A DNA stretch of 64,000 bases from Chloroflexota bacterium (lineage in GTDB: Bacteria > Chloroflexota > Limnocylindria > Limnocylindrales > CSP1-4), in NCBI GenBank assembly GCA_030447745.1, contig JAUJOH010000010.1, forward strand, positions 35,374 through 99,373, read 5' to 3'. The notes beneath the pieces are model-generated. The model was not told where the DNA came from and searched no databases. It saw only the letters and a program-made list of their open reading frames with translations. Made by a program: the position numbers and the translations under genes. Position 1 is the stretch's first letter. Every line of letters starts with the position of its first letter. Shown piece by piece: positions 4,309-54,566 of the stretch.

Positions 4309-4804
4309 CGTCCGCCAGCCGCAACAGCTGACCGAATTCGGCGTCGCGGGGTGCGTCCTGGTGTCGGATCAGGTCCACCGTGCGGGGGCCGCAACCGGCG
4401 ACCTCCGCGAGACGCGCCGAGACTTCGGCGTGGTGGCGGAGCCGATCGAGGTGGGCCGCCATGCCGGGCACCACGCCCGCGACCTGCAACGCCCGTGGAC
4501 CGAATGCCTCGCCGAGCGACCACGCGACCCTCGGCCAGAGGCCGGTCGCGCCCTTGCCGGCGTCGTGGAGCAGCCCGGCGAGGAGCACGTCGCGCTCGGT
4601 GACCCCCTCGGCGCGAAGCGCTGCGACGACGTCGAGCCCGTGGCGGCGATCGGCGACGTGCATACCGTCGAAGAGCGCGAGCTGGGCCGGGGTCAGCCAG
4701 GTGGCCAGGCGGTTCCGCTCGTCGGCGCGGACGCGTGCCCGGACGTGGCGGAGGAACTGGCGGGTCCTGGCAGCCCACCAGGCCGCCTGCGATCGAGCCG
4801 TCAC
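4298..4804 (-). CDS. HD-domain (HDIG-type) phosphohydrolase
   Basis: C-terminal 168 aa of ORF 4298..6172 with the LLHDAGKG HD motif. GTG start at 4804 forms a GTGA overlap with the stop of the upstream M50 gene. Confidence 0.6.
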   Translation of the reverse strand: MTARSQAAWWAARTRQFLRHVRARVRADERNRLATWLTPAQLALFDGMHVADRRHGLDVVAALRAEGVTERDVLLAGLLHDAGKGATGLWPRVAWSLGEAFGPRALQVAGVVPGMAAHLDRLRHHAEVSARLAEVAGCGPRTVDLIRHQDAPRDAEFGQLLRLADDAS

Positions 4805-5457
4805 AGGAGGCCGAATTGACGTCCCACGAGGAGCTCGAAGAGCGGGAACCCGACCTCGCTGAACACGACGCCCACGACCGTCTGGCGCCCAGGCAGGATG
4901 GGCAGGAACACGGCCGCGAACAGGATCAGGAACCCGTACTGCTCCAGGACCGGGCGGACCCGGTACTCCGTCTCGCGGTCGAGCGCTGCGAACAGCACCT
5001 TCGACCCGTCGAGCGGTGGGATCGGGACGAGGTTGAAGATGAAAAGCGCGATGTTGATGAACACGAGGAGCGCAAGGGTGTTGTGCGCGATGTCTGGCAC
5101 GTCCATCCGGGTCGTGACGATGTACCGGAGCGGCAGTGCGGCTGCGGTGGCGAGGATCAGGTTGGACAGCGGTCCGGCCGCGGCGACGAGCGCCTCGCCC
5201 CTCCGCCCGCCCCGGAGGTTGAACGGGTTGACCGGTGTCGGTTTCGCCCAGCCGAACCCGGCCAGGGCGAGGAGCAGGGCGCCCATCGGATCGAAATGAG
5301 CGCGCGGATCGATCGTCAGTCGCCCGAACAGCCGGGCGGTGGAGTCGCCCAGCTGGAACGCCGCCATGGCGTGCGCGAACTCGTGGATCGGAAAGGCCAC
5401 GAGGATGATGACGCCGAGCACGATGAAGAGCTCGATGGACGGGTTGAGCAGGATCAC
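4801..5457 (-). CDS. Site-2 protease family zinc metalloprotease (peptidase M50)
   Basis: HEFAHA zinc motif, multiple TM helices and the NLVPIPPLDGSKV motif. Confidence 0.8.
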   Translation of the reverse strand: MILLNPSIELFIVLGVIILVAFPIHEFAHAMAAFQLGDSTARLFGRLTIDPRAHFDPMGALLLALAGFGWAKPTPVNPFNLRGGRRGEALVAAAGPLSNLILATAAALPLRYIVTTRMDVPDIAHNTLALLVFINIALFIFNLVPIPPLDGSKVLFAALDRETEYRVRPVLEQYGFLILFAAVFLPILPGRQTVVGVVFSEVGFPLFELLVGRQFGLL

Positions 5458-16634: not shown

Positions 16635-17876
16635 TCACCGCCCGACGACGATCGGCGTGCTCGGGAACCTCGTCAGCCGCTCGAGGCGTCCGGCCGTCGC
16701 GTCGATCGCGACCAGATCCTCGATCCGGACTCCCATCTCGCCCTCGAGATAGATGCCCGGCTCGACGGAGAAGACCGTCCGCGACGGGAGCTCGGCGACC
16801 GCCGCCGCGGACCTGCCGAGCGACGGCGCCTCGTGCGTCGCGAGCCCGATCCCGTGCCCGAGCCCGTGGCCGTAGGCGGGCCACCGCCCGTCCTCGTCGA
16901 TCACCGACCGGGCGGCGGCATCGGCTTCCCGACCCGTGGGCAGTGCCGCGCCCTCGGCCAGCCGCGCCTCGAGCAGCTGGATCGCCGCCCGCTGCGAGCG
17001 CGCGACGAGCCGGTAGACGTCGAGGTCGCGCTCGGCCGGCTCGCCGACGAACAGCGTCCGCGTCATGTCGCTCCGGTAGCCCGCCACCTGCGCCCCGAAG
17101 TCGAACAGCAGCACCTCGCCCGCGGCGATCGGCTGGTCGCGTGGCGCCCCGTGAGGCAGCGCCGCCTGGGCGCCGGACAGGCACGCGACGTCGAAGGCGA
17201 GGGCCTCAGCGCCGCTCGTCCGCATCTCCCACTCGAGCGCCATCGCGAGCTCGAGCTCCGTGGCGCCGGGACGGATCCGCGGCAGCAGCGCGGCCAGGGC
17301 GCGGTCGGCGACGGCGCACGCGGCGCCAATCCGCTCGAGCTCCGCGGGCTCCTTCGTGGCGCGATCGGCTTCCACCCACCCCTCGACGGGCACGAGCTCG
17401 ACCTCCGCAGCCGCGGACTCGAGGGCCCGCCAGACGCTGTGCGGCACGAACGCCGCCTCCACGGCGACGCGGCGGGCGCCGACGGAGGCCACGAGCTCCG
17501 TCCAGCGCGACGGCAGGTCGTGGTAGACCTCGAACAGCCGCGATTCGGGCGCTTCCCGCCCGGCCTGGATCGTGTACCGGCTGTCGGCCAGCACGACGAC
17601 CTCCTCGCCGCCGACGAGGAACTGGCCGGACTGGCCGGCGACCTTGTCTTCCCCCGACCCGAGCCGGAAGCCGGTGAGGTACCGCATGTGCTCCGGCCGG
17701 ACGCCGAAGTACGCGTCGACGCCCGCCTCGCCGAATCGCGCCCGAAGGCGCCGCAGGCGCGCCGGCCGCGCCACCCGGTCGAGTGCCTCCCACTCCGCGA
17801 GCTGGGCCGGCGGCGGCGGGCCGGCGAAGTCCGCCGGGGAGGGCCACGAAGAAGCGCCGCGGGCGCGAGCCGTCAC
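16635..17876 (-). CDS. pepP: Xaa-Pro aminopeptidase / M24 family peptidase
   Basis: Creatinase N-domain plus M24 pita-bread core (HGLGHGIGLATHEAP, EPGIYLEGEMGVRIED). Classic pepP-efp arrangement. GTG at 17876 forms GTGA with the mltG stop. Confidence 0.8.
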   Translation of the reverse strand: MTARARGASSWPSPADFAGPPPPAQLAEWEALDRVARPARLRRLRARFGEAGVDAYFGVRPEHMRYLTGFRLGSGEDKVAGQSGQFLVGGEEVVVLADSRYTIQAGREAPESRLFEVYHDLPSRWTELVASVGARRVAVEAAFVPHSVWRALESAAAEVELVPVEGWVEADRATKEPAELERIGAACAVADRALAALLPRIRPGATELELAMALEWEMRTSGAEALAFDVACLSGAQAALPHGAPRDQPIAAGEVLLFDFGAQVAGYRSDMTRTLFVGEPAERDLDVYRLVARSQRAAIQLLEARLAEGAALPTGREADAAARSVIDEDGRWPAYGHGLGHGIGLATHEAPSLGRSAAAVAELPSRTVFSVEPGIYLEGEMGVRIEDLVAIDATAGRLERLTRFPSTPIVVGR

Positions 17877-19228
17877 AGGTAGCCGTACTTGCGCCGGTTC
17901 TCGTTGTGCTCTTCGATCGTCTTTGCGAAGACGTGCTTGCCCCCGCCGTCCGGGATGGCGAGGAAGTAGAAGTAGCCGGCCTCCGTGTCCGGGTCGAGGG
18001 CCGCCTCGATCGAGCTCAGCCCTGGCGAGCAGATCGGCCCCGGCGGGAGGCCGCGCACCGCGTACGTGTTGTACGGTGCCAGATCCTCCGGGAGCTGGAC
18101 CTCGGCCAGCGGGACCCCCGGCGGCACCCAGAAGGCGTACTCCGTCCACCGCTCGAACGGCAGCTCGCGCAGTGCGAGGGTGTCGAGCGCGTAGAAGACA
18201 GTGGGGTCGGCGTTCAGGATCTGCTCCGGGCCGCTGCCGTTGAGCCGGTTCTCGTAGACGCCGGCGATCAGCGGACGCTCCTCGGGAACCTGCGCCTCCT
18301 TCTCGACGATCGAGGCCAGGGTCAGGCGCTCGTAGAAGGTCGCCTGTGCCACGCGCTCACGCCCGACCTGCTCGACGAACCGGTCGAGCATCATTCGGAT
18401 CAGCTCCTCCGCGGTCGTGTCCTGCACGAGGTCATAGGACGCCGGGAACAGATAGCCCTCGAGCGAGGCGCCGTCCGGCAGACCGGATGCGCCGAGCCAC
18501 GGGTAGTCGGCGAGAAGCTCCGGGGTCGGCTCCATCGCGAGGTCCCGGAACTCCTGGGCGTCGACGCTCAGGTCCTCCTCCCACGTCTGGATCAGCGCGG
18601 CCATCTGGTCGATCCGGAGTGCCTCGCGGAACGTCTTGGAAACCACGACGACGGTGATCCGGTTGTCGATCAGGGCGGTCACCAGCTCGTCCGGGGTCAT
18701 GTTCCTGGCCACGCGGAAGTCACCCGCCTCGAGCCGCGGCGCGAGATCGCGCATCGTGGCCTGGAACACGAAGGCCCGCGAGTCGCTCACCAGCCCCTCC
18801 GCCTCGAGCCGGTTGGCGACCTCCGCCACCGTGTCGCCGTCGCGCACGGTGAAGGTGACGTCGGCGGAGTCCTCGCTCGGCGCCTCGGTCAACGCGGTGC
18901 CCAGCCGCTCGCGGACGAGGTCCGCGACGAACGGGATCCGGAGCGCCGCCGGGTTGTCATAGCCCCAGCCGACCAGCGAGTCCGCGACGATCGGTCGCAG
19001 GGCGGTGAACAGCACGGCGATGACCAGCGCACCGAGCACGACCGCGAACACGACGAACCGAAGCAGCCCGACGAGACCGCTGCCGCCGCGATCGCGGGGC
19101 CGCCGCTCCGGCGAGGCGCGGCGCGGGTCGCCGTTCCACGTCCGGCGTCCGTCGAGGCGCTGGTGCGGCTCGTACGGCTCCGCCGGGGCACGCCGGTCGC
19201 GCGGGCGACCGCCGCCGCGAATGGTCAT
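17873..19228 (-). CDS. mltG: Endolytic murein transglycosylase MltG (YceG family)
   Basis: N-terminal TM plus the YceG domain (EGYLFPASYDL, ASIVEKEA, NTYAVRGLPPGPICSPG). Confidence 0.85.
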   Translation of the reverse strand: MTIRGGGRPRDRRAPAEPYEPHQRLDGRRTWNGDPRRASPERRPRDRGGSGLVGLLRFVVFAVVLGALVIAVLFTALRPIVADSLVGWGYDNPAALRIPFVADLVRERLGTALTEAPSEDSADVTFTVRDGDTVAEVANRLEAEGLVSDSRAFVFQATMRDLAPRLEAGDFRVARNMTPDELVTALIDNRITVVVVSKTFREALRIDQMAALIQTWEEDLSVDAQEFRDLAMEPTPELLADYPWLGASGLPDGASLEGYLFPASYDLVQDTTAEELIRMMLDRFVEQVGRERVAQATFYERLTLASIVEKEAQVPEERPLIAGVYENRLNGSGPEQILNADPTVFYALDTLALRELPFERWTEYAFWVPPGVPLAEVQLPEDLAPYNTYAVRGLPPGPICSPGLSSIEAALDPDTEAGYFYFLAIPDGGGKHVFAKTIEEHNENRRKYGYL

Positions 19229-19764
19229 TGGCTCCTCTCCATCGCCGTCGACGGCGGAGCGGACGGGGCCTCGGGAGCTGGGGATTGGCCCGTGCCTGGG
19301 GATTGGCCCGTGTCCGCGGCGGCCCGCGCATCCAGCTCCTCCTGCAGGATGATCGCGGCGGCCTCACGGTCGACACGGGAACGGTACACCTCCCGCTGGG
19401 CCGGCGTAGGCGGGCCGCCCGATCGGCCGCGCTTCATCGGCCCGAGCCGCTCCTCCGCGCGGTGGCTGCTCAGTCGCTCGTCCCGGAGCGTGTACGGGAT
19501 CCCGAGGCGCTCGGCGACGCCGGCCGCCCACGCTCGAGTGAGCTCCGCCTGCGGCCCATCGGCTCCCCAGGCCTGGAGCGGCAGCCCGACGACCAGCTCG
19601 GTCGCCGAGTGCTCCGCGACGAGCCGCTGGATGGCGGCTGCGTCCGCGTCGAGGTCGTGGCCGCGCCGGATGGTCGCGACGGGCCACGCACGACCGCCCT
19701 CGCGCTCCGCGACCGCGACCCCGATCCGGCGCTCGCCGAGGTCGATGCCGAGCAGACGGGTCAA
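19225..19764 (-). CDS. ruvX: Holliday junction resolvase-like protein RuvX/YqgF
   Basis: LLGIDLGERRIGVAVAE...ELVVGLPLQAWGADGPQAELTRAWA. TTG start at 19764; ATGA-type overlap with mltG. Confidence 0.75.
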   Translation of the reverse strand: MTRLLGIDLGERRIGVAVAEREGGRAWPVATIRRGHDLDADAAAIQRLVAEHSATELVVGLPLQAWGADGPQAELTRAWAAGVAERLGIPYTLRDERLSSHRAEERLGPMKRGRSGGPPTPAQREVYRSRVDREAAAIILQEELDARAAADTGQSPGTGQSPAPEAPSAPPSTAMERSQ

Positions 19765-21832
19765 GGAGTTGATGGGGCGGCCTCGTCCGAGGAGCCGGGG
19801 TTCGCCGAGGCCCCCGGCGCCGTCGATGCGCCGCTCGAGCCGGCCGGGGATCCGCTCGCCGCGCCGGCCGGGGATCCGCTCGCCCCGCTGGCCGGAGTTT
19901 CGCTCGGCGAGCGCGAGGCTCCGGGAGCCGCACCGTTGGACTCGTCCTCGACGCGGAGGGAGACACGGCTGTCGAGCGTCGGGATCGAGTTCACCCAGTC
20001 CGGCCAGACCCGGAGGTCGACCGTGCCGTACGCCGCGAGGAATGCCCGGGCCTCGTCGACCGGCTTGCCCTTGATCTGCTCGCGGAGCGCGTCGCCGTCG
20101 ACCGTCCGGATCTGGGCTGCCGTCGCGCTGACCGGATAGATGACGGTCCCGCGTTCGACGCGGGGCTCGCCCGGCGCGACGTCGACCGACCCGTCCACGA
20201 GCCGGTAGCCGTCTTCCACCCGGGACGTGATGTGCGTCACGGCGATCGACTCGACCGGCCGCGCGTCGACCGCGATGGCAGTCCCGGTCGCCGCCAGCCC
20301 GAGCTCGAACTCGGCGATCTCCTGGTCGACGAGGCCGTCCGGGTTGGTGGTCGGCTGGGGCTCGCCGAGGACCGCCGTGTCGGCGAAGACCGTCATCCCC
20401 TCCGGGACGCGGTTCGGGTCGGCGAGCATCGCCGCGAACTCTTCGTCGAGCCGCGTCGTGAGCTCCGCGAGCGCCGCGTCGACGTCCGCGCGCCGGACGC
20501 GCGGGAACCGCTCGCTCACGCCGCCGGACGTGCCAGAGGGATTGTTGACCTTCACCAGGGTCGGGTCCTGGCCCTCCGGCACGATCGTGATGGCGTTCGC
20601 CGGCACGTTGCCCTCCGGCCCGGACTCCGTCGCCGTCACCCCCACCTCCGCCGTGGCCGGCTCGACGCGGATCGGCTCGCCGAGGATGAGCTGGGCGGCC
20701 GGGAGCGTCACCGCCTGGGTCGTCCGGAACCGGATCCCGCCCTCCGTCGAGACGACGGCACCGGCGGGGATCGCCGTCGATCCGCCGGTGTTCAGGTTCG
20801 AGAACGTCACCGACCCCGACGCGGCCGACTCCTCCACCCGCTCGCCGGTCGCCGCGAACGTGTCGCTGACGGCCACCTCGAACGTGAGCCGTTCGGCCGG
20901 GACGACGGAGGCCGCTGCGTTCGGCTCCGTCACCTCCGGGTCCGCCCGGATCTCGAGCGAGACCGGGCCGATCTGCTCCGCCCGCGCGCGGATCGTAACG
21001 TCCGCCGACGGCAGCAGCAGGTAGGCGCCGACACCACCCGCGAGCACGGCGAGGGCCACGAGTGCGGCGGCCACGATTCCGGCGGTTCGACCCCACGGCC
21101 AGCCCCCGCGCCGGCGATCCGCCGCGGAGTCCGCGGGGCGGGCGGCGGGCCGCGCGGTGGTCGAGGCGGCGGCCGGCGCCCCGGCGGGCGCCGCGGGCCG
21201 GCGAGCATCGGGCGCTGCGGTCGCGACCGGTGGGCATCGGTCGCCGCTGTCGCGGGCCGATCCGCCGTCCGCGGACGAGTGCCGCGCGAAGCCGGCGCCT
21301 CCACGGCCGGCATGACGGTCGTCTCGTCGAGATCCGGCTCGGCTGGCTCCGGCTCCGCGCGGGGGGCGGCACCGGCGCGTCCGCGGGGTCCGGAGCTCGT
21401 CGACGCCGGCGGTCCGGCCGCGTCGGCGCCGGGCGGAGGGCGTCGCCGAGCGGTCGTCCCGGTGGCGGCCGCCACCGCACCCGTGGCGGCGATCGCGCGC
21501 GTGCTCTCGCCGACGTCCGGGCCGGAGCTGGTCCCTCCCGCCGATGGACCCTTCGAGCTCCCCTCCGCCTCCTCGTACTCGGCGACACTGCCGAAGACGG
21601 GCAGTCCTGCGGAGGCCGCCAACGCGCGCGTCGCCGCGTCGCCCGCCACGACCGAAAGCCGGCGGCCGCGCCCCTGCGCCTCGCGCGCGAGGAGGCGGAA
21701 GTTGATCCGCGAGGTCGCGAGCCGGGAGCCGTAAGGAACGACGAGCGCGATCCGGATCTGGTCGATGCCCCGCATCCGCGCAGCAGCCGACGTGATCTCG
21801 TCGTCCGGCTCGAGATAGACGATTGCCGCCAT
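19761..21832 (-). CDS. Large bitopic membrane protein: cytoplasmic alpha/beta domain, Ala/Pro-rich linker, one TM, ~400-aa extracytoplasmic domain with Ser/Gly/Ala-rich tail (probably one gene read in two frames across the linker)
   Basis: ATG at 21832 overlaps the upstream FtsA-like stop as TGATG and begins MAAIVYLEPDDEITSAAARMRGIDQIRIALVVPYGSRL... (ORF 20930..22096 frame). Frame of ORF 19761..21074 is open upstream to at least 21359, then RRRGGWPWGRTAGIVAAALVALAVLAGGVGAYLLL (TM) and a 400-aa exported domain ending at 19761 (overlaps ruvX start). Confidence 0.45.
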
Positions 21833-23094
21833 CAGACCTTCATCGCCCGGAGGACCCGGCGGAGGGCCACGTCGAGCGGCGCCTCGGTGGTCTGGAGCTC
21901 GATGGCCTGGTACGCGAGGCCGAGCGGGGTCACGTCCTGCTGGTCGACGAGCAGCTTTGTGGCGTCGGTCAGGGCGTCGACGTCCCCGGGCGCCATCACG
22001 GTCACCTCCGGCGGGCGGGCGAACGAGAGCCGCTTCCAGAAGGCCTCGGCGGCGAGCACGCGCGGGACCTCCGGGAGCCTGGAGCCGCCGCCGCACAGGT
22101 AGATCCGGCCCGGCAGCAGGTCGCCGCCCGACAGCTCCTCCATCACGAGCTCGACGCCGGCCGCCCAGACGTCGACGTCATCGGCGACGATGGCGGCGAC
22201 CTCGTCGCGCCGCTCGACCGGCAGCCCGCGGGCGTAGTCCACCTTGACGGCCTCGGCGCGCGGGAAGGGCAGGTCGAGCCGATCCGCCAGCGACTTCGTG
22301 AACGCTCGACCGCCGAGGGCGAACATCCGCGTCCCCTCGATGCCGCCCTGCCGAACGAGGGCCACGTCCGTCGTCCCGCCGCCGACGTCGATGAACAGCG
22401 CGCCGGCCTGCCGGACGTGCTCGGTTCCCAGGACGCGGGCAACCGCGTAGGGCTCCGCCACGATCTCGAGCAGCTCGAGGTCCAGCTGCGACGCCACGCT
22501 CTGCAGCGCACCCAGATGCACGAGCGGCGCGTACGCGTTGAAGATGGCAATCTTGACGTGCCGCCCCTGGAACCCCACGGGGTTGGTCAACGAGTAGCCG
22601 TCGATCGCCGCACCGACGACGGCGGCGTGCACGAGTCGGACGTCGACGTGCGGCAGCCCGGTCTCCCAGGTGATCGAGCGTTCCGCCTCGCGCAGCGCTT
22701 CGCGCTGGACGCCGTCGATCAGCTTCTGCAGCTCGCCCTCGCTGATCGGCTGGTCCGGCCGCTTGCGCTCCTGGCTGTGGGTGGTCGTGAAGCCCTTGAC
22801 CAGCTCGCCGGCGATCCCGACGACGACCTGCGAGGGCCGGAAGCCGGACATCTCCTCGGCTTCCTGGAGGGCCACCGCGCAGTTGTCGACGACGGCGGCG
22901 ATGTCCGCGACGGTGCCCGACTGCATGTGCGAGAGGCCCTGGCGCTTCCGGCCGACACCGCGCACGATGCCGTGGCCCCCGTCGTCGATCTCGAAGACGA
23001 GCGCCTTGGCGAACTCCGTGCCGATGTCGAGGGCGGTGCAGGCGGCGAGCCGGGGCTCTCCGTCGCGCTGCCAGATCCGGCGCCAGAAGGCCAT
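21832..23094 (-). CDS. Actin-fold ATPase of the FtsA/PilM family, 420 aa, with predicted C-terminal amphipathic helix
   Basis: LDIGTEFAKALVFE (phosphate-1), VVGIAGELV, FIDVGGGTTDVALV (phosphate-2), YLCGGGSRLPEV (adenosine), 1C-like insert, and C-terminal LDVALRRVLRAMKV. ATG at 23094 overlaps the alaS stop (ATGA). Confidence 0.75.
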   Translation of the reverse strand: MAFWRRIWQRDGEPRLAACTALDIGTEFAKALVFEIDDGGHGIVRGVGRKRQGLSHMQSGTVADIAAVVDNCAVALQEAEEMSGFRPSQVVVGIAGELVKGFTTTHSQERKRPDQPISEGELQKLIDGVQREALREAERSITWETGLPHVDVRLVHAAVVGAAIDGYSLTNPVGFQGRHVKIAIFNAYAPLVHLGALQSVASQLDLELLEIVAEPYAVARVLGTEHVRQAGALFIDVGGGTTDVALVRQGGIEGTRMFALGGRAFTKSLADRLDLPFPRAEAVKVDYARGLPVERRDEVAAIVADDVDVWAAGVELVMEELSGGDLLPGRIYLCGGGSRLPEVPRVLAAEAFWKRLSFARPPEVTVMAPGDVDALTDATKLLVDQQDVTPLGLAYQAIELQTTEAPLDVALRRVLRAMKV

Positions 23095-25890
23095 CAGGCC
23101 TGCGGTTGCTTGCCGTTGCGGAGCGCGGCCCGGACCGCGTCGAGGGCCGCCGGCAGGTTGTCGCGCCGCGATCCCCTGCCCTGCGCCATCTCCGGGCGGC
23201 CCCCGCCCTTGCCCTCCAGCGGCGCCATCGCCGCGCGGACGAGGTGTCCCGCTGCGATCCCCCGCCCGACGAGATCGTCGCTCACGGTGACGAAGACCTG
23301 TGGCTCGTCCGCGTCGAGCGCGAGCGCGACGACGCCGGAGCCGAGAGCGCCCCGGATGTCGCGCGCGACCCCCTTCATCGCGTCGATCGACTCCCACGGC
23401 GCCGCGGCCGCCACGAGCCGGATCCCGGGCGCCGGCTCCTCGGCGCGTTCGACCAGCTCGCCGGGACGTGGAAGGCCGGCCCCACCACCGGCACGCAACC
23501 GGCGCCGCGCCTCGCGGAGCTCGTCCTGGAGCGCGGAGATGCGTTCCGGCACCGCCTCGACGGACTGCGCTCCGGCGAGGTCGGCCGCCTGCTCGAGCGT
23601 CTCGAGCCGCGTCGAGAGCCAGGCATCCGCACCCGCACCGGTGAGCGCCTCGATCCGGCGCATCCCGCTGCCGATGCTCCGCTCGGCCGTGATGACGAAG
23701 CCGCCGATCTGCCCCGAGGCGCGGCAGTGCGTCCCGCCGCACAGCTCGAAGCTGTAGTCGCCGACGCGGACCGTCCGGACCGTCTCGCCGTACTTCTCGT
23801 CGAAGAAAGCGTCGGCGCCGTTGGCGATGGCATCGGCCATCGGCATGAACGCGATCGTCAGCGGCTGATCCTCGCGGATGACGCGGCGCACCTCGCGCTC
23901 GATGGCGCGCTTCTCGTCTTCCGTCAGCGCGCGGTCGAACGGGAAGTCGAACCGCAGGTAGTCCGGCGTGACGACGGAGCCGGCCTGCCGCGCCCGCTCC
24001 CCGACGACGTTCCGGAGCGCCCGATGCAGGACGTGCGTGCCGGTGTGGTTGCGCATCGTGTGCGCGCGACGCTCGGGATCGACGACCGCGAGCACCCGGT
24101 CGCCGACCCGGAGACGCCCCCGGAGCGTGCCGAGATGCACGTGGAGGCCACCGACCGGCTTCTGCGTGTCGTCGACCCGGAAGACGGGATCGACCGCGCG
24201 ATCGCCGATCGCCACGCCCACGCTGCCGTCGTCGCGAACCCCGACCGTCCAGCCGATCTCATCGTCGCCGGGCACGAGGACGAGCACGCCGCGGTCGCCG
24301 ATCTGGCCGCCGCCCTCGGCGTAGAACGGCGTGCGGTCGAGGACGACCTCCGCCTCGGCGCCCGCCTCCGTCCGGCCCTCCGCGTCACCCCTGGCCGTCA
24401 GCTCGTCGTATTCGGTCCCGCCCCGGAGGATGGCAACGACACGTGCCTCGGCGGTCGTCGTCTCGTAGCCCAGGAACTCCGTGTCGCCGGCTCGGGCCTG
24501 GATCGCCTGGAGCTGTGCCATCCGCTCGCCGTGGCGCGCGAGCTCGGCCTTCTTTCCGCTACGGCTCCGCCCAGCCGGTCGACCGCCACGCCGTACTCGG
24601 CGGCCAGCTCGACCGTCAGGTCGATCGGGAACCCGTACGTGTCGTGGAGCCGGAACGCCACGTCGCCCGGGAGCTTCGGCGCGTCTGCCGGCAAGTCCTC
24701 CGGCCGCCGCCCGACCTCGCGTTCGGCCGACGTGAGCGGGATCAGCGCCTCCTCGAGCTGCACCGTGCCCGCGTCGAGGGTCCGGCCGAACTGCGACTCC
24801 TCCCGTAGCAGCACGCCGAGGATCTCCTCGCGCCGATCCTCGAGGTGGGGGTAGGCGTCGCGCATGACGTCGATCACGACGGCGGCCGTCTGGGCGAGGA
24901 ACGGCTCGCGACGCCCGAGCAGCCGGGCGTGGCGGACGGCCCGCCGGACGAGCTTGCGCAACACGTAGCCGCGACCCTCGTTCGAGGGCAGCACGCCATC
25001 CGCGATCAGGAACGTTGTGGCTCGCGAGTGGTCCGCGATGACCTGGTAGCTGAAGCGCTCCTGCTCGAACGCGTCCGGGTCGTGGCCGAGCAGCTCGCGC
25101 ATCCGCGCGTGGATCGGTGCAAACAGGTCCGTGTCGTAGTTGGACGCCACCTGCTGGACGACGCTGGCCAGGCGCTCGAGGCTCATGCCGGTGTCGACGC
25201 TGGTGAACGGGAGGGGGACGCGACCGTCCGGCCGCTGGTCGAACTCCATGAACACGAGGTTCCAGATCTCGAGCCAGCGCGGGCAGTTCTCGGAATGGTC
25301 GGGAATACAGTGCGGCCCTTCGCTCAGATGCGCGCCGCGGTCGAAATGGATCTCGCTGCACGGGCCGCACGGACCGGTCTCGGCCATCCGCCAGAAGTTG
25401 CTGTCATCGCCGCTGTCGACGTCCCCCAGCGCGCCATCCGGTCGGGCGGCAGCCCGATCTCGTCGCGCCAGACGTTCCACGCGACCTCGTCGGCGGTGTA
25501 GGTCGTCGCCGCCAGCCGCTCGCCCGGGATACCGAGGTCGCGGGTGAGGAAGTCCCAGGCGAACTGGATCGCCTCGCGCTTGAAGTAGTCGCCGAAGCTC
25601 CAGTTGCCGAGCATCTCGAAGAGGGTGTTGTGCCGCGTCGTCCGGCCGACCTCCTCGAAGTCGTTGTGCTTGCCGGCCACCCGCAGCACGCGCTGGTAGT
25701 CGACGGCCCGGGTGTAGCCGCGCTTCTCGACCCCGGTCAGCACGTCCTTGAACTGGACCATGCCGCTGTTCGTGAAGAGCAGGGTCTGGTCGCCGGCGGG
25801 CACGAGCGAGGCGCCGGGCACGACGGTGTGACCGCGCTCGGCGAAGAACTCGACGAAGCGGCGCCGGATCTCCGCCGCAGGCAGGCTGAT
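23094..25890 (-). CDS. alaS: Alanine--tRNA ligase, read through at least two 1-bp frameshifts (near 24570 and 25440); start codon unclear
   Basis: Three consecutive ORFs (25324..25821, 24398..25480, 23094..25370) carry AlaRS segments: [26 protein letters not shown]...[13 protein letters not shown]; [22 protein letters not shown]; editing domain; C-terminal DHHA1. No ATG/GTG/TTG in frame upstream of AEIRRRF (possible CTG at 25884). Confidence 0.85.
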
Positions 25891-29083: not shown

Positions 29084-30189
29084 TCACGACGCGATCCGCC
29101 CGCCACCGAGCACGACGTCGCCGGCATAGGCGACCGCCCTGGCCCGGCGCGGCCGCCCCGACGGGCAGCGTCCGTCTCCACCGTCCAGCCGGCCCCGCCC
29201 GCGCTGCGGCGGCCGGACGGACGCACGGTGGCGGCCACCGGCGCAGCCCGGTGCCGGATCCGGATCTGCGCCCGGAAGCCGTCGGCCGCGCGGCGCGTCG
29301 AACGCCGGCGGCCCGCCGGCCACGAACGACACGCGCTCGAGCTCGAACGCCCGCGTCTCGAGGTCCTCGCGCCGACCCAGCTGGATCGTGTTCGTGCGCG
29401 GGTCGATCCGCGACACGTAGCGCGGTGACCCGAGGGCGACGCGACGCCCTTGCGCTGGCCGACCGTGAAGCCCGCGGCTCCCGGGTGCTCCCCCACCCGC
29501 TCCCCGTCCGCATCGATGAGCGGCCCGGGCTCCGGGTGCCAGCCGGCCCGGTCGCGAAGCGCGTCGCGGTAGTCGCCGCCCGGCACGAAGCAGATCTCCT
29601 GGCTCTCGGGCTTGTCGGCGGTGGCGAGGCCGAGCGACCGGGCGACCGCCCGCACCTCCGGCTTGGTGAGCTCGCCCAGCGGGAAACGCGCGTGCTCCAG
29701 CTGGTCCTGGCGGAGCCCATACAGGAAGTAGGTCTGGTCCTTGTCCTCGTCGCGCGCACGGGCCAGTCGGGCGCTCCCGTCGGCGCCCACCACCCGGCGC
29801 GCGTAGTGGCCGGTGGCGACGGCGTCGCACTCGTAGAGGTGCCGCGCCCGGCCGAGCAGCGCCCCGAACTTGACGTACGTGTTGCAGTCGATGCACGGGC
29901 TGGGCGTGCGACCGTCGAGGTACGCGTCGAGGAACGGCTGGAGCACGCCGGCGTCGAACTCGCGCTCGAGGTTCATCACGTAGAACGGGATCTCGAGCTG
30001 AGCCGCGACGCGCCGGGCGTCGTCGGCGGCATCGAGCGAGCAGCAGCTCTTCTTGAACTCGGAGTACGAGTCGGCGACGTCATGGAGGCGCATCCAGACG
30101 CCGACGACGTCGTGGCCCTGCTGGCGAAGAAGCGCCGCGGCCACGGACGAGTCGACGCCGCCGGACATCGCGACCAGGATCCGGGTCAC
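29084..30189 (-). CDS. mnmA: tRNA-specific 2-thiouridylase MnmA, with three apparent frameshifts in the 3' 400 nt
   Basis: [18 protein letters not shown] (PP-loop), [14 protein letters not shown], then alternating frames give [59 protein letters not shown]...GWTVETD and [17 protein letters not shown]-stop. GTG at 30189 forms GTGA with the iscS stop. Confidence 0.8.
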
Positions 30190-31376
30190 GAGGCCGACGC
30201 GACCCCCTGGCCGAGCGGGTCCGCCGCCACCGCCGCCGCTCCCACGCGCATCGAGGCCAGGACCCGCGGCACGACCTCGCACGCCGTGTCGATCTCGGCA
30301 TCCGTGGTCGTCCGGCCGAGCGACAGCCGCAGGGCGCCCCGGGCCTCGTCCGGCGGGTAGCCCATCGCGGACAGGACATGGGAGACGTCGGTCGAGCCGG
30401 TCGTGCACGCCGAGCCGACCGAGCAGCAGATGCCCTCGAGATCGAGGCCGAGCGCGCACGACGACCCATCGGTGTCCCGGGCGATGAGCGACAGGATGCC
30501 GGGCAGGCGGCGGGCGGGGTGCCCGGTGACCTCCGTGCCGTCGACCGTGAGGACGGCCGCGGTGAGCCGCTCGCGCTGCTTCTTGAGCCGGCGATTGGTC
30601 TCCGGCCGCTCGTCGCACGCGAGGTCGTAGGCAGCGGCCAGCCCGACCGCGCCGGCCACGTTCTCGGTGCCGGCTCGGCGGTGGCGCTCCTGCGTCCCGC
30701 CTTGCTGCTGGGCGAGGATGTGGGTTCCGTGCTTCACCCAGAGCGCGCCGACGCCCTTCGGGCCCTCGAACTTGTGGGCCGCGATCGCGACGAAGTCGGC
30801 GCCCAGCCGCCGGACGTCGAGCTCGACGTAGGGGGCCGCCTGGACCGCGTCGACGTGCATCAGGACGCCCTTGTGCGCATGGACCCGCTCGGCGATCTCC
30901 TCGATCGGCTGGATCGTCCCGACCTCGTTGTTGCCGAGCATCACGCTGACGAGGATCGTCTTGTCCGTGATCGCGGCGTCCACCTCGTCCGGGTCGACCC
31001 GCCCATACCGGTCCACGCCCACCTCGACGACCTCGAAGCCGAACTTCTCGAGGTAGCGCATCGTGTGGCCCACGGCGTGGTGCTCGACAGCGCTGGTCAC
31101 CAGCCGGTGCCCGCGCGCCTTGCCTGCCCAGGCCGCACCCTTGATCGCGAGGTTGTTCGCCTCGGTGCCGCCGGAGGTGAACACGACCTCGCGCGGCTCG
31201 GCGCCGAGGCGCGACGCGACCCGCTCGTGCGCCTCGTCCAGGCCGGCCCGTGCCGCCCGCCCGAGCGAGTGGGCGGAGCTCGGGTTGCCGAACTGCGCCG
31301 TCAGGTACGGGAGCATCGCCTCGAGCACCTCGGGGCGCAGGGGCGTGGTCGCGGCGTGGTCCAGGTAGATCGCCAT
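30186..31376 (-). CDS. iscS: Cysteine desulfurase (class V aminotransferase, IscS/NifS-like)
   Basis: [21 protein letters not shown]...[16 protein letters not shown]...[12 protein letters not shown]. Confidence 0.85.
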
Positions 31377-31416
31377 CGGACGGCGATTGTACGCTCGGCC
31401 CGGAACGCCGGGCAGC

Positions 31417-33339
31417 TCAGCCGGCGGCTGCCTCGCGGTCCATCGCCCGACGAAGATCGTCGTCCCGTCCCCGCTCGCGTCGCCGATCGTGCTGCGAGAG
31501 GGCGCGCTTCCGGAGCCGGATCGAGCGCGGCGTCACCTCGACCAGCTCGTCGCCGGCGATGAACTCGATCGCCGACTCGAGCGTCAGCGGCCGGGCCGGC
31601 GTGAGTCGCAGCGACTCGTCGTGGGCGTGGGTCCGGATGTTGGTCAGCTTCTTCTCCTTGGTCGGGTTGACGTCCATGTCGCCCGACCGCGAATTCTCGC
31701 CGACGATCATCCCCTCGTAGACCTCGACGCCGGCGCTGATGAACAGCTCCGCCCGCTGCTCCAGGTTGAACAGTCCGTAGGCGTTCGACGTCCCGGCCCG
31801 GTCGCTCACGAGGACGCCGTTCGTCCGGTGGGTCACCTCGCCGGCCCACGGCCCGTAGCCCTCGCCGATCTGGTGCAGGAGCGCCGTGCCGCGGGTGTCG
31901 GTCAGCAGCTGGCCCCGGTAGCCGATCAGCCCGCGCACCGGCAGGACGTACTCCAGGCGGACTCGCCCGTCAGTGTCCGTCGTCATCTGCTCGAGCCGGC
32001 CCTTCCGGCCGGCCAGCGCCTGCTGGATCTCGCCGATGTAGTCGGGCGGGATGTCGATCGTGATCCGCTCGTACGGCTCCTGGAGCTGGCCGCCGACCGT
32101 CCGCAGGATCACCTCCGGCCGGCTGACCGTCAGCTCGAACCCCTCTCGGCGCATCTGCTCGATGAGGACGGCGAGCTGGAGCTCGCCTCGGCCCCGGACC
32201 TCGAACGTGTCGCCGCTCCCGGTGGGGTGGATCTCGATCGAGACGTTGCCGAGGACCTCCCTGTCGAGGCGCGCCCGGATCTGCCGGCTCGTGACGTACC
32301 TCCCCTCGCGGCCGCTGAGCGGCGAGGTGTTGACGCCGAACGTCATCCGGAGCGTGGGCGCGTCGACGTCGAGCCGAGGGAGCGGGCGCGGATCGGCTGG
32401 ATCGGTCAGCGTGTCGCCGATCGTGACGTCCGGCAGCCCGGCGACCGACACGATGTCGCCCGGCCCGGCTTCCGGGATGTCGATCCGCTCGATGCCGCGC
32501 GCCGTCTGGAGCGCTGTCACGGTGCCGGTCAGCGTGACGACGCGCCCGGGCTCTACGGACCCGGCCGTGTCGTCCGGCTGATCGCGGACGACGCTGATCC
32601 GCTGGCCCATCCGAAGAAGGCCGTTGCGGATCCGCCCGACCGCCATCCGCCCCACGTATTCATTGGCCGCCAGGTTCGTCACGAGGAGCTGGAGCGGATG
32701 CCCCGGCTCGTGCCTCGGCGGAGGCGTCACGGCGACGAGCAGGTCGAGCAGCGGTCGGAGGTCCGTACCGGGCTCGTCGAGCGAGCGGGTCGCCGTGCCG
32801 GCCTTGGCGTTGGTGTAGACGACCGGAAAGTCGATCTGCTCGTTCGTCGCGCCGAGATCCATGAACAGCTCGAGGACCTCGTCGAGCACCTCCGCCGGGC
32901 GGGCGTCGGACCGGTCGATCTTGTTGAGCGCGACGACGACCGGCAGCCGGCGCGCCATCGCCTTCTGGAGGACGTAGCGCGTCTGGGGCAACGGACCCTC
33001 CGCTGCGTCGACGAGCAGCAGCACGGCATCGACCATCAGGAGGCCGCGCTCCACCTCGCCGCCGAAGTCGGCGTGCCCGGGCGTGTCGACGATGTTGAGC
33101 CGGACGCCGGCGTGGTCGACGGTGGTCTGCTTGGCGAGGATCGTGATGCCCTTCTCGCGCTCGAGGTCGCCCGAGTCGAGGACACGGTCGACGACCGCCT
33201 GGTTGGCGCGGAACGCGCCGGTCTGGCGGAGCATCCCGTCAACGAGGGTCGTCTTGCCGTGATCGACGTGCGCCACGATGGCGAGATTGCGGACGTCGGC
33301 CCGAACGGCGGGCACGGTGGAGCGGGCGAGGTCGGTCAT
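31417..33339 (-). CDS. typA: Translational GTPase TypA/BipA
   Basis: [34 protein letters not shown]; full EF-G-like domain set. Confidence 0.9.
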
Positions 33340-33554
33340 GGGCCGGCGCAGTGTCGCACATCGCGGTTCGCAGCGGCCGCCACGGCCGCGGATCGGGTGC
33401 AGGCCGGTCGCGCCGGTCGCGGTCCGGGCGGACGCGCCCGATCATCGGGTGGGCGCCGGCCCGCCCGGGCCCGTCCGCGGCGGACCGTCCGGGCGACTGA
33501 GCCCGCGCCGGCCGGACGCCGGATCGACGAGCCAGTACACCGCGGCCGGCCAGC

Positions 33555-49338: not shown

Positions 49339-50997
49339 TCACGACCGCCCCCGACGGTGCAGCAGGTCGGTCATGAGCGCGATCATCGAGGCGAGCTCCG
49401 GGATCCGCAAGACGACGCTCAGCACCAGGTAGACGGCCCCGAACGCGACCGTCACCAGGACCGACTGCGCGACGAGCGCGAGCGGGCCGGGATCCGGTCC
49501 GATGAGGCCGTCGATCGCATAGAGCGCGAGCAGCCCCAGCGCACCGGCGACGACCGTCGCCAGGGCGGCCTCGAGGCCGACCCGCACGACGTCGCCGACG
49601 CCGAGCGACGGCAGCCTCCGCGTGAGCAGCACGATCAGCACGGCCGCCTCGATCCACGCCGCGACGGCGATCCCGGTCGCGATGCCGGCGAGCCCGAGCG
49701 GACCGACGAGCAGCGTGGCAAGGACGGTGTTGACGACGACCGCGAGGACGGCCGCGCCGACCGGAGTTCGGGTGTCCTGCCGGGCGTAGAACGCCCTCGC
49801 CAGCAGCGCGATCAGCGCGTGCGCCGCGAGGCCGCCCAGGAAGAACAGCAGCGCGTTCGCCGTCAGGTCGATGTAGGTGCTCCCGAGACCCGGGAACAGG
49901 ACCGTGACGACCTGCCGGCGGAGGATCGCGAGCAGCCCGGCGATCGGCAGCATCACGTACAGCAGCAGCCGCAGGCCGCCCGTGACGAGCCCTACGTACT
50001 CGCGCTCGCGGCCGGCCGCCGCGACCCGCGCGAGCGACGGGAACACGACCACCCCGAGCGGAACGCCGATGACGCCGACCGGGATCTGGAGCAGCGTGAA
50101 CGCGGCGTTGTAGGCGGTGACGGCGCCGGTGCCGAGCATCGTCGCCAGCGAGGTGACGACGACGAACGTGATCTGGCTGGCTCCCAGCCCGACCGCACGT
50201 GGCGCCATCAGTCGGAGCGTCTGACGCGCCCGATCGTCAGCAAGGGCCGCCACCGGTTCGTACCGGAAGCCGATGCGCCGCAGCCCGGGCAGCTGGACGA
50301 GGAGATGCGCGAGCGATCCCACGACCACGCCGATCGCCAGCCCCTGCACGCCGAGGCTCGGGGCGAGGAGGACGGCGCCCGCGATGATCGCGACGTTGTA
50401 GACGATCGGCGCCATGGCCGCCGCGGCGAACCGGCCGGAGGCGTTCAACACGCTCGTCGCCACGGCTCCGAGCGCCAGGAACACGGGGCTCAGGAGCATG
50501 ATCCGCGTCAGCTCGACGGTGCGCGCCGTGTAGAGCGCGTCGAAGCCGGGCGTGATCGCCGGCACGATCGCCGGGGCCGCGACGGAGAGCCCCACCGCCA
50601 GCACGGCGAGGGCGATCAGCATCACGTTCGTGACCGTCGATACGACTCGCCACGCCCGCTCGTTGGCGTCGGCCGCCAGCAGGGTGGCCACGATCGGGAT
50701 CAGGGCCGACCCCAGCGCGCCGGCGGCGACCAGCTGGAAGACGAGGTCCGGCAGCCGGAAGGCGGCGAAGAAGGCGTCGAGATCCGCCGATGCGCCGAAC
50801 GTGTTGAGGACCACCACCGTGCGCACCCAGCCGAGCGCCCGGGAGGCGAGAAACGCCCCCGAGACCACGATTCCCGCGATCGCCAGTCTCCGGCCACGGC
50901 CGGCCGGCGGCGCCGAAGGACCGGGAGTGTCCGCTGCCCGCCCCGGGTGCGCGACCGCCGTCGGAGGGTCGATCGGGCCGGTGCGCCCGCTCGTCAA
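49339..50997 (-). CDS. murJ: Lipid II flippase MurJ (MviN family), copy 2
   Basis: RLAIAGIVVSGAFLASRALGWVRTVVVLNTFG...; paralogous to copy 1. Start uncertain: TTG 50997 (TTGA overlap with the xerC stop) or GTG 50955. Confidence 0.7.
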   Translation of the reverse strand: MTSGRTGPIDPPTAVAHPGRAADTPGPSAPPAGRGRRLAIAGIVVSGAFLASRALGWVRTVVVLNTFGASADLDAFFAAFRLPDLVFQLVAAGALGSALIPIVATLLAADANERAWRVVSTVTNVMLIALAVLAVGLSVAAPAIVPAITPGFDALYTARTVELTRIMLLSPVFLALGAVATSVLNASGRFAAAAMAPIVYNVAIIAGAVLLAPSLGVQGLAIGVVVGSLAHLLVQLPGLRRIGFRYEPVAALADDRARQTLRLMAPRAVGLGASQITFVVVTSLATMLGTGAVTAYNAAFTLLQIPVGVIGVPLGVVVFPSLARVAAAGREREYVGLVTGGLRLLLYVMLPIAGLLAILRRQVVTVLFPGLGSTYIDLTANALLFFLGGLAAHALIALLARAFYARQDTRTPVGAAVLAVVVNTVLATLLVGPLGLAGIATGIAVAAWIEAAVLIVLLTRRLPSLGVGDVVRVGLEAALATVVAGALGLLALYAIDGLIGPDPGPLALVAQSVLVTVAFGAVYLVLSVVLRIPELASMIALMTDLLHRRGRS

Positions 50998-51989
50998 GCC
51001 GGGTCGTCCGTCGTGGCGCGCGGGTGCGCCTGACGGTATGCCGCTCGGAGTCGCGTGGGCGACACGTGCGTGTAGACCTGCGTCGTGGCGAGGCTCTCGT
51101 GGCCCAGCAGCTCCTGTACCACGCGCAGGTCGGCACCCCCGTCGAGGAGGTGGGTCGCGAAGGAGTGGCGAAGGGTGTGCGGCGAGACGCCCTCCGGGAG
51201 GCCGGCGGCGCGACACAGCCGGTCGAGACGGTAACGCAGCCCGCGCACGCCGAGAGGCTCACCGCGGTGGTTCAGGAAGACTTCCGTCGGCGCGGTCGCC
51301 GCGGAGGCCCGCCGCCCGACGAGGACCGGTCTGCCGTCCGCGAGGTAGCGCTCGAGTGCGTCGACCGCGGGCCGCCCCAGGAGCCCGACTCGTTCTTTCC
51401 GCCCCTTCCCCAGCACCCGGATCTCGCCCCGCCGCGGGTCGAGTGACGCGAGCTCGGCCGCCGCCAGCTCGCTGATCCGGAGACCCGCCGCGTAGGCCGT
51501 CTCGACGATTGCCCGGTCACGGACGGCGAGCGCCGCCAGGAGCTGCCCACGGGCCAGGTCACGATCGCCCGCAGCGTCGAGGCGCCCGGCGCTTTTCCGA
51601 ACGACGCCGCCCTCGATCGCGTCGAGCAGCCGCTCGACCTGCTCGACCTCGAGGACACGCGGCAGCCGGCGCTGCAGACGCGGCGTCGCGATCGCACCCC
51701 AGGGGTCGCCCGGGGCGAGCCCCTCGCGAGCTGCAAAGCGATGGAACGAGCGGATGGCGGCGAGGCGCTGGGCGACGGAGCTCCTGGCGACGGACCCCAC
51801 CAGGGACGCGAGGTACGCGCGCAGGTCCGCCCGCGGGGGCTCGCGCCAGTCCACGCCCCGCTCGCCGCGCCAGGCCAGGTACCGTCCGACGGCGCCCGCG
51901 TACGCCCGCGGCGTGTGTGGGGACACGTCACGAGCCGCGAGCGCCGCCAGGAACCGGTCGAGGGCGGCGACTCCCGCCGGCACCGTCAC
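50994..51989 (-). CDS. xerC: Tyrosine recombinase XerC
   Basis: ...HTLRHSFATHLLDGGADLRVVQELLGHESLATTQVYTHV. Second Xer paralog in the window (xerD at 6287). GTG start near 51989. Confidence 0.8.
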   Translation of the reverse strand: MTVPAGVAALDRFLAALAARDVSPHTPRAYAGAVGRYLAWRGERGVDWREPPRADLRAYLASLVGSVARSSVAQRLAAIRSFHRFAAREGLAPGDPWGAIATPRLQRRLPRVLEVEQVERLLDAIEGGVVRKSAGRLDAAGDRDLARGQLLAALAVRDRAIVETAYAAGLRISELAAAELASLDPRRGEIRVLGKGRKERVGLLGRPAVDALERYLADGRPVLVGRRASAATAPTEVFLNHRGEPLGVRGLRYRLDRLCRAAGLPEGVSPHTLRHSFATHLLDGGADLRVVQELLGHESLATTQVYTHVSPTRLRAAYRQAHPRATTDDPA

Positions 51990-52002
51990 CCGGTCGCCAC
52001 GG

Positions 52003-54426: not shown

Positions 54427-54566
54427 CGGCCGGAGTCTAGCACCGGCCCCTTGGCGCTCAGTCACCTCCGAGGCACCGTGCCAGCTGGATCGCCCGCCCT
54501 AACCGAGGTGCGGGGCGGGATCGGCCAGGGGCGGGATCGGCGACGCCATCCCGCATCGGCGGACCG

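Follow-up and report, generated by a model that had tools for sequence, protein, structure and literature searches.

Organization of the locus

We analysed a 64,000-nucleotide (nt) stretch of contig JAUJOH010000010.1 from a Chloroflexota bacterium (GenBank assembly GCA_030447745.1; hereafter, the window). Analysis of the region between alaS and ruvX revealed two adjacent genes, one encoding an FtsA-like actin ATPase of 420 amino acids (aa) and the other a single-pass membrane protein (hereafter, the partner) whose outer domain resembles a baseplate wedge. This gene pair is real and uncharacterised, and it may represent an unstudied cytoskeleton module of the cell envelope. A previous reading of the DNA letters (the original prediction) had proposed a 420-aa FtsA/PilM-type ATPase coupled to a bitopic membrane protein at this position, and open reading frames (ORFs), motifs, and family matches confirmed that such a pair is encoded here.

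Near-identical database proteins carry names that assign the window to Candidatus Limnocylindrales (Chloroflexota). The G+C content of the region is ~73%, and every gene in it is located on the minus strand. The order in the 5' to 3' direction of that strand is alaS, the 420-aa ATPase gene, the membrane partner gene, ruvX, mltG (yceG), an M24 peptidase gene, efp, and xseA. This order agrees with the claim that the pair interrupts an alaS-ruvX-mltG block. RuvX and YceG were assigned via Pfam matches on the homologous genes of related loci. The genes and the signal discussed below are as follows.

21832..23094, minus strand: FtsA-like actin-fold ATPase, 420 aa plus stop (ATG at 23094, stop at 21834..21832)
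19761..21832, minus strand: large membrane partner, whole
23094..25884, minus strand: alaS, upstream, translationally coupled, in three frames in the window
about 19225..19766, minus strand: ruvX (ORF), downstream, translationally coupled
17873..19228, minus strand: mltG/yceG (ORF), downstream, translationally coupled
17854..17866, minus strand: terminator-like hairpin, 7 nt past the mltG stop

The five coupled genes overlap at each junction. The alaS stop and the ATPase start share TGATG, and the ATPase stop and the partner ATG share a second TGATG (21834..21830); both were read directly from the sequence, the latter bearing out the translational coupling of the pair that had been predicted. 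At the next two junctions, TTGA contains both the partner stop and the ruvX start codon TTG, and ATGA contains the ruvX stop and the mltG ATG. The hairpin downstream of mltG is the sole one in the 11.5 kb between 15500 and 27000. Its position is compatible with one transcription unit from alaS to mltG. Chance alone predicts 1.7 such hairpins where one was found, so that the evidence is weak. A search of the whole window with Rfam (gathering thresholds) and ARAGORN returned no Rfam family, no tRNA, and no tmRNA.

Sequence features and classification of the ATPase

The actin nucleotide motifs of the ATPase were seen in the sequence as ALDIGTEFAKALV (aa 21-33), LFIDVGGGTTDVALV (aa 233-247), and IYLCGGGSRLPEV (aa 331-343). 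Comparison with Pfam revealed matches to FtsA (PF14450, E 1e-13), MreB_Mbl (E 3e-8), and PilM_2 (PF11104, E 2.5e-4). The NCBIfam model for ftsA (TIGR01174) matched with an E value of 1e-30 and 106.8 bits, which is under its cut-off of 175.85. The model is matched by each of 36 diverse members of the family (best E 3.2e-36), and none of the 36 reaches the cut-off. The scores against pilM were 35.3 bits versus a cut-off of 133 for TIGR01175 and 20.5 versus 27 bits for PF11104; TIGR01175 likewise matches 36 of 36 family members, with a best E value of 7e-13. Against mreB (TIGR00904), the ATPase scored 25.9 bits versus a cut-off of 365.75.

Searching the Protein Data Bank (PDB) sequences with phmmer revealed FtsA (7q6f) with an E value of 3.6e-14. 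Residues 20-292 of the ATPase align continuously with residues 11-266 of this FtsA, both in the phmmer and in the profile alignment, and the aligned part includes the 1C segment. When the profile of the 36-member family was compared with the PDB, FtsA was again the best match (E 1e-33), followed by PilM (3e-23), EutJ, and MreB (about 1e-12). The strong part of the profile alignment stops at about FtsA residue 262 and weakly picks up again at 312; the stretch between these two blocks comprises ~23 positions in the ATPase family versus ~49 residues in FtsA. The intervening FtsA stretch lies in subdomain 2B, where the FtsZ tail binds in Thermotoga maritima FtsA (PDB entry 4A2A). The shorter stretch hints that the ATPase may not bind FtsZ in the FtsA manner. 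Judged by its sequence, the ATPase belongs to a distinct subfamily in the FtsA/PilM branch of bacterial actins, closest to FtsA, and by NCBI's own TIGR01174 threshold it is not classed as a canonical FtsA.

Both ends of the protein carry candidate interaction elements.

21835..21876, minus strand: C-terminal amphipathic helix LDVALRRVLRAMKV, 14 residues, putative membrane-targeting sequence (hydrophobic moment; family alignment)
23041..23094, minus strand: conserved N-terminal basic/aromatic (Trp/Arg-rich) extension, before the phosphate-1 motif

The helical hydrophobic moment of LDVALRRVLRAMKV is 0.66-0.70, compared with 0.62 for the membrane-targeting helix of Escherichia coli FtsA. The moment alone is only suggestive because about 7% of tail shuffles reach it. 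The amphipathic tail is kept throughout the alignment of the 36 family members, in agreement with the amphipathic helix that had been predicted. The N-terminal extension reads MAFWRKILQR, or a closely similar 10-mer, in loci L001, L002, and L005, and a short basic extension is found across the family alignment. This extension may serve as a second element at the membrane interface or as a peptide for partner binding.

Proteins of this family are named "cell division FtsA domain-containing protein" or "rod shape-determining protein" by NCBI and "cell division protein FtsA" by IMG. It must be asked whether the ATPase is a true, divergent FtsA that is encoded outside the division and cell wall (dcw) cluster and anchors FtsZ, the partner being a lineage-specific late-divisome protein analogous to FtsQ/DivIB or FtsN. 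FtsA tops the matches in every library, IMG labels the proteins accordingly, and the length, the 1C alignment, and the C-terminal amphipathic helix agree with FtsA. However, the equivalog cut-off is missed by every family member, the alignments to hidden Markov models (HMMs) stop near FtsA residue 260, and the 2B-region stretch has less than half the length found in FtsA. No ftsZ was found by tblastn in the window or in loci L001-L006, neither ftsZ nor ftsQ is among the genes called in the loci examined, and ftsA has been reported to adjoin ftsZ in other Chloroflexota classes (PMC10608941). We regard a divergent FtsA as an unlikely explanation, and the original prediction, which had set the ATPase apart from a canonical FtsA with ftsZ nearby, is supported by the scores and by the failure to find ftsZ in these loci. 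A gene for mreB was also absent from the window and from L001-L006.

Domains of the membrane partner

The partner comprises five consecutive parts, with a recognizable wedge domain inside the fourth.

21557..21832, minus strand: cytoplasmic N-terminal α/β domain, aa 1-92 (AlphaFold2)
21090..21556, minus strand: Ala/Pro/Gly/Arg-rich, low-complexity, cytoplasmic linker, roughly 145 aa, holding the frame break described below
21018..21089, minus strand: single transmembrane (TM) helix with RRRGG just before it (hydropathy; AlphaFold2 helix at aa 15-38 of the C-frame protein)
19932..21008, minus strand: folded ectodomain, roughly 360 aa (AlphaFold2 core predicted local distance difference test [pLDDT] about 98)
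20517..20840, minus strand: Baseplate_J wedge domain within the ectodomain (Pfam PF04865)
19761..19931, minus strand: disordered, Ser/Gly/Ala/Pro-rich C-terminal tail, ~55 aa plus stop (pLDDT < 50)

This anatomy agrees with that of the original prediction. It consists of a 92-aa N-domain, a linker of ~145 aa, RRRGG and one TM helix, an ectodomain of ~360 aa, and a Ser/Gly/Ala/Pro-rich tail. The TM helix has a Kyte-Doolittle mean (19 residues) of up to 2.3. The RRRGG before it places the N terminus in the cytoplasm according to the positive-inside rule, and the partner is accordingly predicted to be a type-II bitopic membrane protein.

The AlphaFold2 model of the N-domain (pLDDT 93) predicts four strands and four helices. 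Three motifs are invariant, DDEITSAA, GSRxATSRxNFRLL, and RALAASAGLP, and the domain has no Pfam or NCBIfam family match. A STAS fold (anti-sigma-factor antagonist, β-α repeats of the SpoIIAA type) was considered as a candidate for the α/β fold of the N-domain. The description of the partner as RodZ/ZipA-like holds for the overall architecture only; the N-domain is not a helix-turn-helix (HTH) domain, and Pfam revealed no ZipA-type or SPOR-type (FtsN) domain. The linker differs in length and sequence between homologues.

The ectodomain model has three portions, namely, a β-rich part that includes Baseplate_J, a long helix together with an α/β domain, and another α/β domain at the C terminus, which closes with an invariant WPxWV. 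Baseplate_J (PF04865) was matched by residues 98-205 of the C-frame protein with 38.6 bits versus a gathering cut-off of 21.1, and a full-length partner homologue matched PHROG 6, "baseplate wedge subunit," with an E value of 2e-13. NCBI names the partner a "baseplate J/gp47 family protein." This domain had been missed by the original prediction. The remainder of the ectodomain has no family. A Pfam search at E<=10 with the N-domain and three pieces of the ectodomain gave nothing usable; its sole hits were Pre-ATP-grasp (E 0.033) and a hexapeptide family, the latter being spurious. The PHROGs revealed nothing in either protein beyond the wedge domain, and PADLOC gave zero matches for both. The C-terminal tail is variable and is absent in homologues from the candidate phyla radiation (CPR).

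The frame break in the partner gene

In the window, the partner is spread over two frames. The N-domain and the Ala/Pro/Gly/Arg-rich stretch lie in the frame of 21832, which then stays open as far as a stop at 20930. The frame of 21830 is uninterrupted and encodes the TM helix, the ectodomain, and the tail. On this contig, NCBI has annotated only a piece of 437 aa that starts at a GTG at 21074 (P0241). Alignment with P0242 showed that the N frame covers aa 1-228 and that the C frame begins at about aa 211. A single-base deletion agrees with the frame arithmetic, and the alignment with P0242 places it at ~21100-21260, a region with G/C runs of at least 4 at 21182, 21138, 21107, and 21094. Codon-position GC could not refine the site, since every codon position of the linker is rich in G and C.

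The comparison with related loci indicates an assembly error. In short-read contigs of the Joint Genome Institute (JGI), the partner is a single ORF with the same domains (631 aa in L006 and 635-669 aa in L005), and most of the ectodomain homologues listed are 560-700 aa long with the N-domain. The N-domain and the ectodomain are out of frame in 10 of 86 related loci; these breaks fall in 9 of 40 long-read ("contig_N"/MFD) assemblies versus 1 of 46 short-read assemblies, and the direction of the shift varies. The essential alaS gene is broken as well. As shown by tblastn with the intact alanyl-tRNA synthetase (AlaRS) of L001, it runs over three frames in the window (-2, -1, and -3), changing frame near 25408-25426 and again near 24533-24560, which points to assembly indel errors and not to a pseudogene. 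Taken together, the single ORFs, the homologue lengths, the long-read bias, the broken alaS, and the frame arithmetic identify the split of the partner as an assembly error. The corrected partner would be a single protein of about 690 aa, so that the doubt of the original prediction about one protein or two genes is settled in favour of one.

The alternative that the partner is an artefact composed of two unrelated genes, one for a small cytoplasmic protein and one for a TM protein, is hardly credible. It draws on the two frames, on the 437-aa protein that alone is called by NCBI, and on the short length (94-166 aa) of many N-domain database entries. Apart from the single short-read ORFs of about 630 aa, the full-length homologues, the distribution of breaks over the assemblies, and the two frameshifts in alaS, it is contradicted by the homologues from CPR and Dormibacteria, which are single ORFs of the same layout. 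A programmed frameshift was also considered and was ruled out, since the direction of the shift differs among assemblies and no such shift was found in the short-read ones.

Elsewhere in the window, overlapping same-strand ORFs with coding-like codon composition occur on the minus strand at 30186-31532 with 31417-33441 and at 49339-51258, 50994-52160, and 52003-54498. They suggest that the contig contains more frameshifted genes.

Conservation within Limnocylindria-type loci

One genome per GTDB species was scanned with two peptide patterns of the N-domain. The scan yielded at least 495 confirmed stretches, with at most two per locus, and the best 80 loci of these stretches were all from Limnocylindria-type metagenome-assembled genomes (MAGs). 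Local tblastn revealed the order alaS-ATPase-partner-ruvX-mltG in 86 of 86 Limnocylindria-type loci, with gaps only at contig ends; mltG follows ruvX wherever the contig reaches that far.

The proteins of the locus differ in their identity to those of the window. The ATPase is 79-90% identical (85 related loci), which is comparable to elongation factor P (EF-P; 75-95%, with one partial match at 60%). The N-domain of the partner shows 62-84%, the C-terminal half of AlaRS 57-74%, RuvX 55-71%, MltG 39-57%, and the partner ectodomain 38-53%. On these identities, the ATPase is conserved at the pace of a translation factor. The gradient from the ATPase over the N-domain down to the much more variable ectodomain is that expected if the N-domain contacts the ATPase.

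Two observations concern individual loci. In L005, an extra 193-aa ORF without a Pfam family lies between alaS and the ATPase gene (4415-4996) and is absent from the other loci. L011, L042, L017, L081, L030, L044, and L082 come from GTDB representative MAGs titled Saccharimonadales, Patescibacteria group, Thermomicrobiales, or Anaerolineaceae; these titles are probably wrong, because the ATPases are 85-87% identical to that of the window and the synteny is that of ordinary Limnocylindria.

Conservation across phyla

An exhaustive phmmer search with the ATPase against 1.84 billion cluster representatives (50% identity) revealed 5773 relatives at E<=1e-3 and 363 clusters at E<=1e-30. Full-length relatives have ~405-450 aa and range from 50% down to 30% identity. 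Five distant loci had the following gene orders (percentages are ATPase identities).

L087, Ca. Berkelbacteria, 50%, named "PilM": alaS, ATPase, 532-aa partner, ruvX, yceG ... mreB
L088, Ktedonobacteraceae, 49%, named "FtsA": alaS, ATPase, 932-aa Baseplate_J protein, ruvX, yceG, bacA
L090, Ca. Dormibacteria, 44%: alaS, ATPase, 601-aa partner, ruvX, yceG, Peptidase_A24 ... efp ... xseAB
L089, Patescibacteria MAG, 34%: alaS, ATPase, 545-aa partner, ruvX; yceG upstream, not after ruvX
L091, CPR-like contig, 30%: alaS, ATPase, 516-aa partner, ruvX, yceG, mreB, mreC

A second Dormibacteraeota cluster has an ATPase with 41% identity. The mltG gene follows ruvX in four of the five loci. It is directly followed by mreB and mreC in the CPR-like contig (L091, 6330-8204), and in the Berkelbacteria locus mreB lies 2.4 kb downstream (L087, 8275-9321).

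An HMM of the Limnocylindria partners recognised both the N-domain and the TM-ectodomain part in all five distant partners, with E values for the N-domain of 4e-15, 4e-9, 2e-16, 2e-9, and 8e-6. All five contain a single TM helix at an equivalent position, and basic residues stand before it in four of them. The ectodomain alignment reaches the end of the profile in four partners and closes on a WPxW-type or related hydrophobic motif; in the Ktedonobacteraceae partner it stops before this end. The shared domains and synteny indicate that the two-gene module and its position predate the split of Chloroflexota, Dormibacterota, and Patescibacteria. The conservation of the pair, which the original prediction had left to be checked, was found in the 86 Limnocylindria-type loci and in five distant ones. 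What had been treated as a local oddity is a module conserved across phyla, and this synteny, like the wedge domain, had escaped notice.

Some of the distant neighbourhoods bear on a role in a type IV pilus or competence machine, in which the pair would form a PilM/PilN-like inner-membrane alignment subcomplex. The layout of an actin ATPase gene followed by that of a bitopic protein is the PilM-PilN layout, and the weak PilM_2 match and the TIGR01175 matches throughout the family are compatible with it. NCBI calls the Berkelbacteria homologue PilM, the Peptidase_A24 (prepilin peptidase) gene stands after yceG in the Dormibacteria locus (L090, 12553-13305), and L089 has a ComEC-like gene upstream. 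Nevertheless, the ATPase is far under both PilM cut-offs, and the genes called in the loci examined include no pilB, pilC, pilT, pilO, or pilin genes. Unlike accessory pilus loci, all related Limnocylindria-type loci retrieved have the pair within a housekeeping operon. A pilus role is therefore judged improbable.

Two other members of the ATPase family have a different architecture. In P0399 (L092, 422-2848) and P0385, the C-terminal ~400 aa are 38-39% identical to the ATPase, and the N-terminal parts are effector-type domains, namely TIR_2 in P0399 (E 7.5e-20) and a weak caspase/Peptidase_C14 match in P0385 (E 4.6e-4). P0399 adjoins genes for a HicB-like antitoxin and for HTH proteins, and there is no alaS, partner, or ruvX gene there. 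This looks like an offshoot of the ATPase family that was recruited into a conflict or defence-like system.

Such fusions, of which the TIR fusion lies beside a HicB-like gene, together with the Baseplate_J and PHROG baseplate-wedge matches of the partner, could suggest that the partner is what remains of a prophage or of a contractile injection system, or that the pair is a defence system, in either case with no housekeeping role. This is highly improbable. The part in common with wedge proteins is only one sub-domain (about 110-150 aa), the loci examined contain no further genes for tails or baseplates, and PADLOC was negative. Moreover, the pair occupies a fixed place in alaS-ruvX-mltG with overlapping stops and starts in three phyla, and the ATPase is as conserved as EF-P.

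Proposed role of the gene pair

We propose that the ATPase forms a membrane-bound actin-like filament and that the partner is an envelope-spanning adaptor, the two acting in wall growth or division. On the sequence evidence, we hold this as a working reading with about even chances of being right. The two proteins would be expressed from the alaS-ruvX-mltG operon as an envelope-spanning module. The ATPase would bind ATP, sit on the inner face of the membrane via its C-terminal helix, and polymerise like FtsA. The N-domain of the partner is the likely docking site for the ATPase because of the translational coupling, the strict co-occurrence, and the conservation gradient. The flexible linker and the TM helix may couple the state of the filament to the ectodomain, which, built around a domesticated Baseplate_J domain, may oligomerise or bind wall components or enzymes. 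By analogy with MreB-RodZ and with FtsA-FtsN/FtsQ, the most likely job of the module would be to position or regulate the machinery of peptidoglycan growth or division.

A bolder version of this proposal is possible but rather doubtful. The pair might be a third membrane-actin system, apart from the FtsA divisome and the MreB elongasome and ancestral to the Chloroflexota-Dormibacterota-Patescibacteria group, in which an FtsA-like filament, a new α/β adaptor, and a domesticated extracellular baseplate wedge organise or gate wall remodelling, e.g., by MltG. If true, this would be a cellular exaptation of a building block of contractile tails.

Several points weigh against a separate filament-and-adaptor module for wall growth or division. 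The ATPase might be the sole FtsA-type protein of these organisms and would then simply be their divergent FtsA. The PilM name of the Berkelbacteria homologue and the prepilin-peptidase gene after yceG in Dormibacteria are weak signals of PilM. The alaS-ruvX-mltG block is a common housekeeping block in other phyla that lack the pair, e.g., Mycobacterium tuberculosis Rv2555c-Rv2553c, so that adjacency to mltG may say little about function. In addition, a literature search found no paper describing the pair, its synteny, or the architecture of the partner.

An eLife paper on conflict systems does not treat the ATPase family. The pair deserves attention for its phyletic depth and for the baseplate domain that it has reused. 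Chloroflexota, Dormibacterota, and Patescibacteria (CPR) are abundant, but most of them have not been cultured, and very little is known of their cell biology. The place of the pair in a housekeeping operon of these phyla and the EF-P-like conservation of the ATPase make it a probable undescribed core component of the envelope or of division. Since annotation pipelines label the ATPase "FtsA," "PilM," or "rod shape-determining protein," surveys of FtsA or PilM that rely on labels may count a paralogue. The partner would exemplify how a cellular membrane protein can reuse the wedge domain of a phage baseplate. With two genes and one predicted interface, the module offers a concrete, testable entry point.

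Comparison with known systems

The partner shares its wedge domain with the wedge proteins of contractile tails (Baseplate_J, gp6, gpJ, Mu gp47, and TssF type). Unlike these proteins, it is predicted to be membrane-anchored and extracytoplasmic, it is fused to a cytoplasmic domain, it is encoded in a chromosomal housekeeping context, and the rest of its ectodomain has no counterpart among known families. Genes for tails, sheaths, tubes, spikes, or other baseplate components were found at none of the loci examined. ZipA, in which an N-terminal TM helix is combined with a C-terminal FtsZ-binding domain in the cytoplasm, differs from the partner by its opposite topology; the partner has its TM helix in the middle of the protein and a large domain outside. 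The SPOR domain that is absent from the partner is periplasmic in FtsN.

The PilM-PilN system also combines an FtsA-like actin ATPase gene with a following gene for a bitopic protein, whose cytoplasmic N terminus would bind the ATPase, and the weak PilM HMM matches fit this likeness. It differs from the pair in the scores far under the PilM cut-offs and in the lack of pilus genes nearby at the loci examined. In addition, a folded domain of 92 aa and a long linker take the place of a short peptide in the partner, whose ectodomain is wedge-like and not PilN/PilO-like.

FtsA (TIGR01174, PF14450; PDB entries 7q6f and 1e4f) is the best-scoring relative of the ATPase, with an actin fold, ~420 aa, a C-terminal amphipathic helix, and bitopic membrane partners; the alignment runs through the 1C insertion, which suggests that the ATPase likewise has 1C instead of 1B. 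The two differ in that no family member reaches the equivalog cut-off and in that the C-terminal third of the ATPase, including the 2B region, is shorter and aligns poorly. The ATPase gene is fixed between alaS and ruvX and was never seen beside ftsQ or ftsZ in the loci examined, and the ATPase has a partner of its own, which is encoded by a translationally coupled gene and contains a folded domain in the cytoplasm.

The pair differs from MreB-RodZ in both components. The ATPase is far from the mreB cut-off, and a bona fide mreB coexists with it in the CPR loci L087 and L091. The N-domain of the partner is α/β and not an XRE-type HTH domain, DUF4115 is absent from the partner, and its low-complexity linker is cytoplasmic and not periplasmic. 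The overall plan is nevertheless shared, namely, a membrane-associated actin and a type-II bitopic partner with a folded cytoplasmic N-domain, a low-complexity linker, a TM helix, and an outer domain, encoded in the neighbourhood of mltG and, in CPR, of mreB-mreC. The pair is not a categorically new system; it belongs to a known type, in which a membrane actin is combined with a bitopic adaptor.

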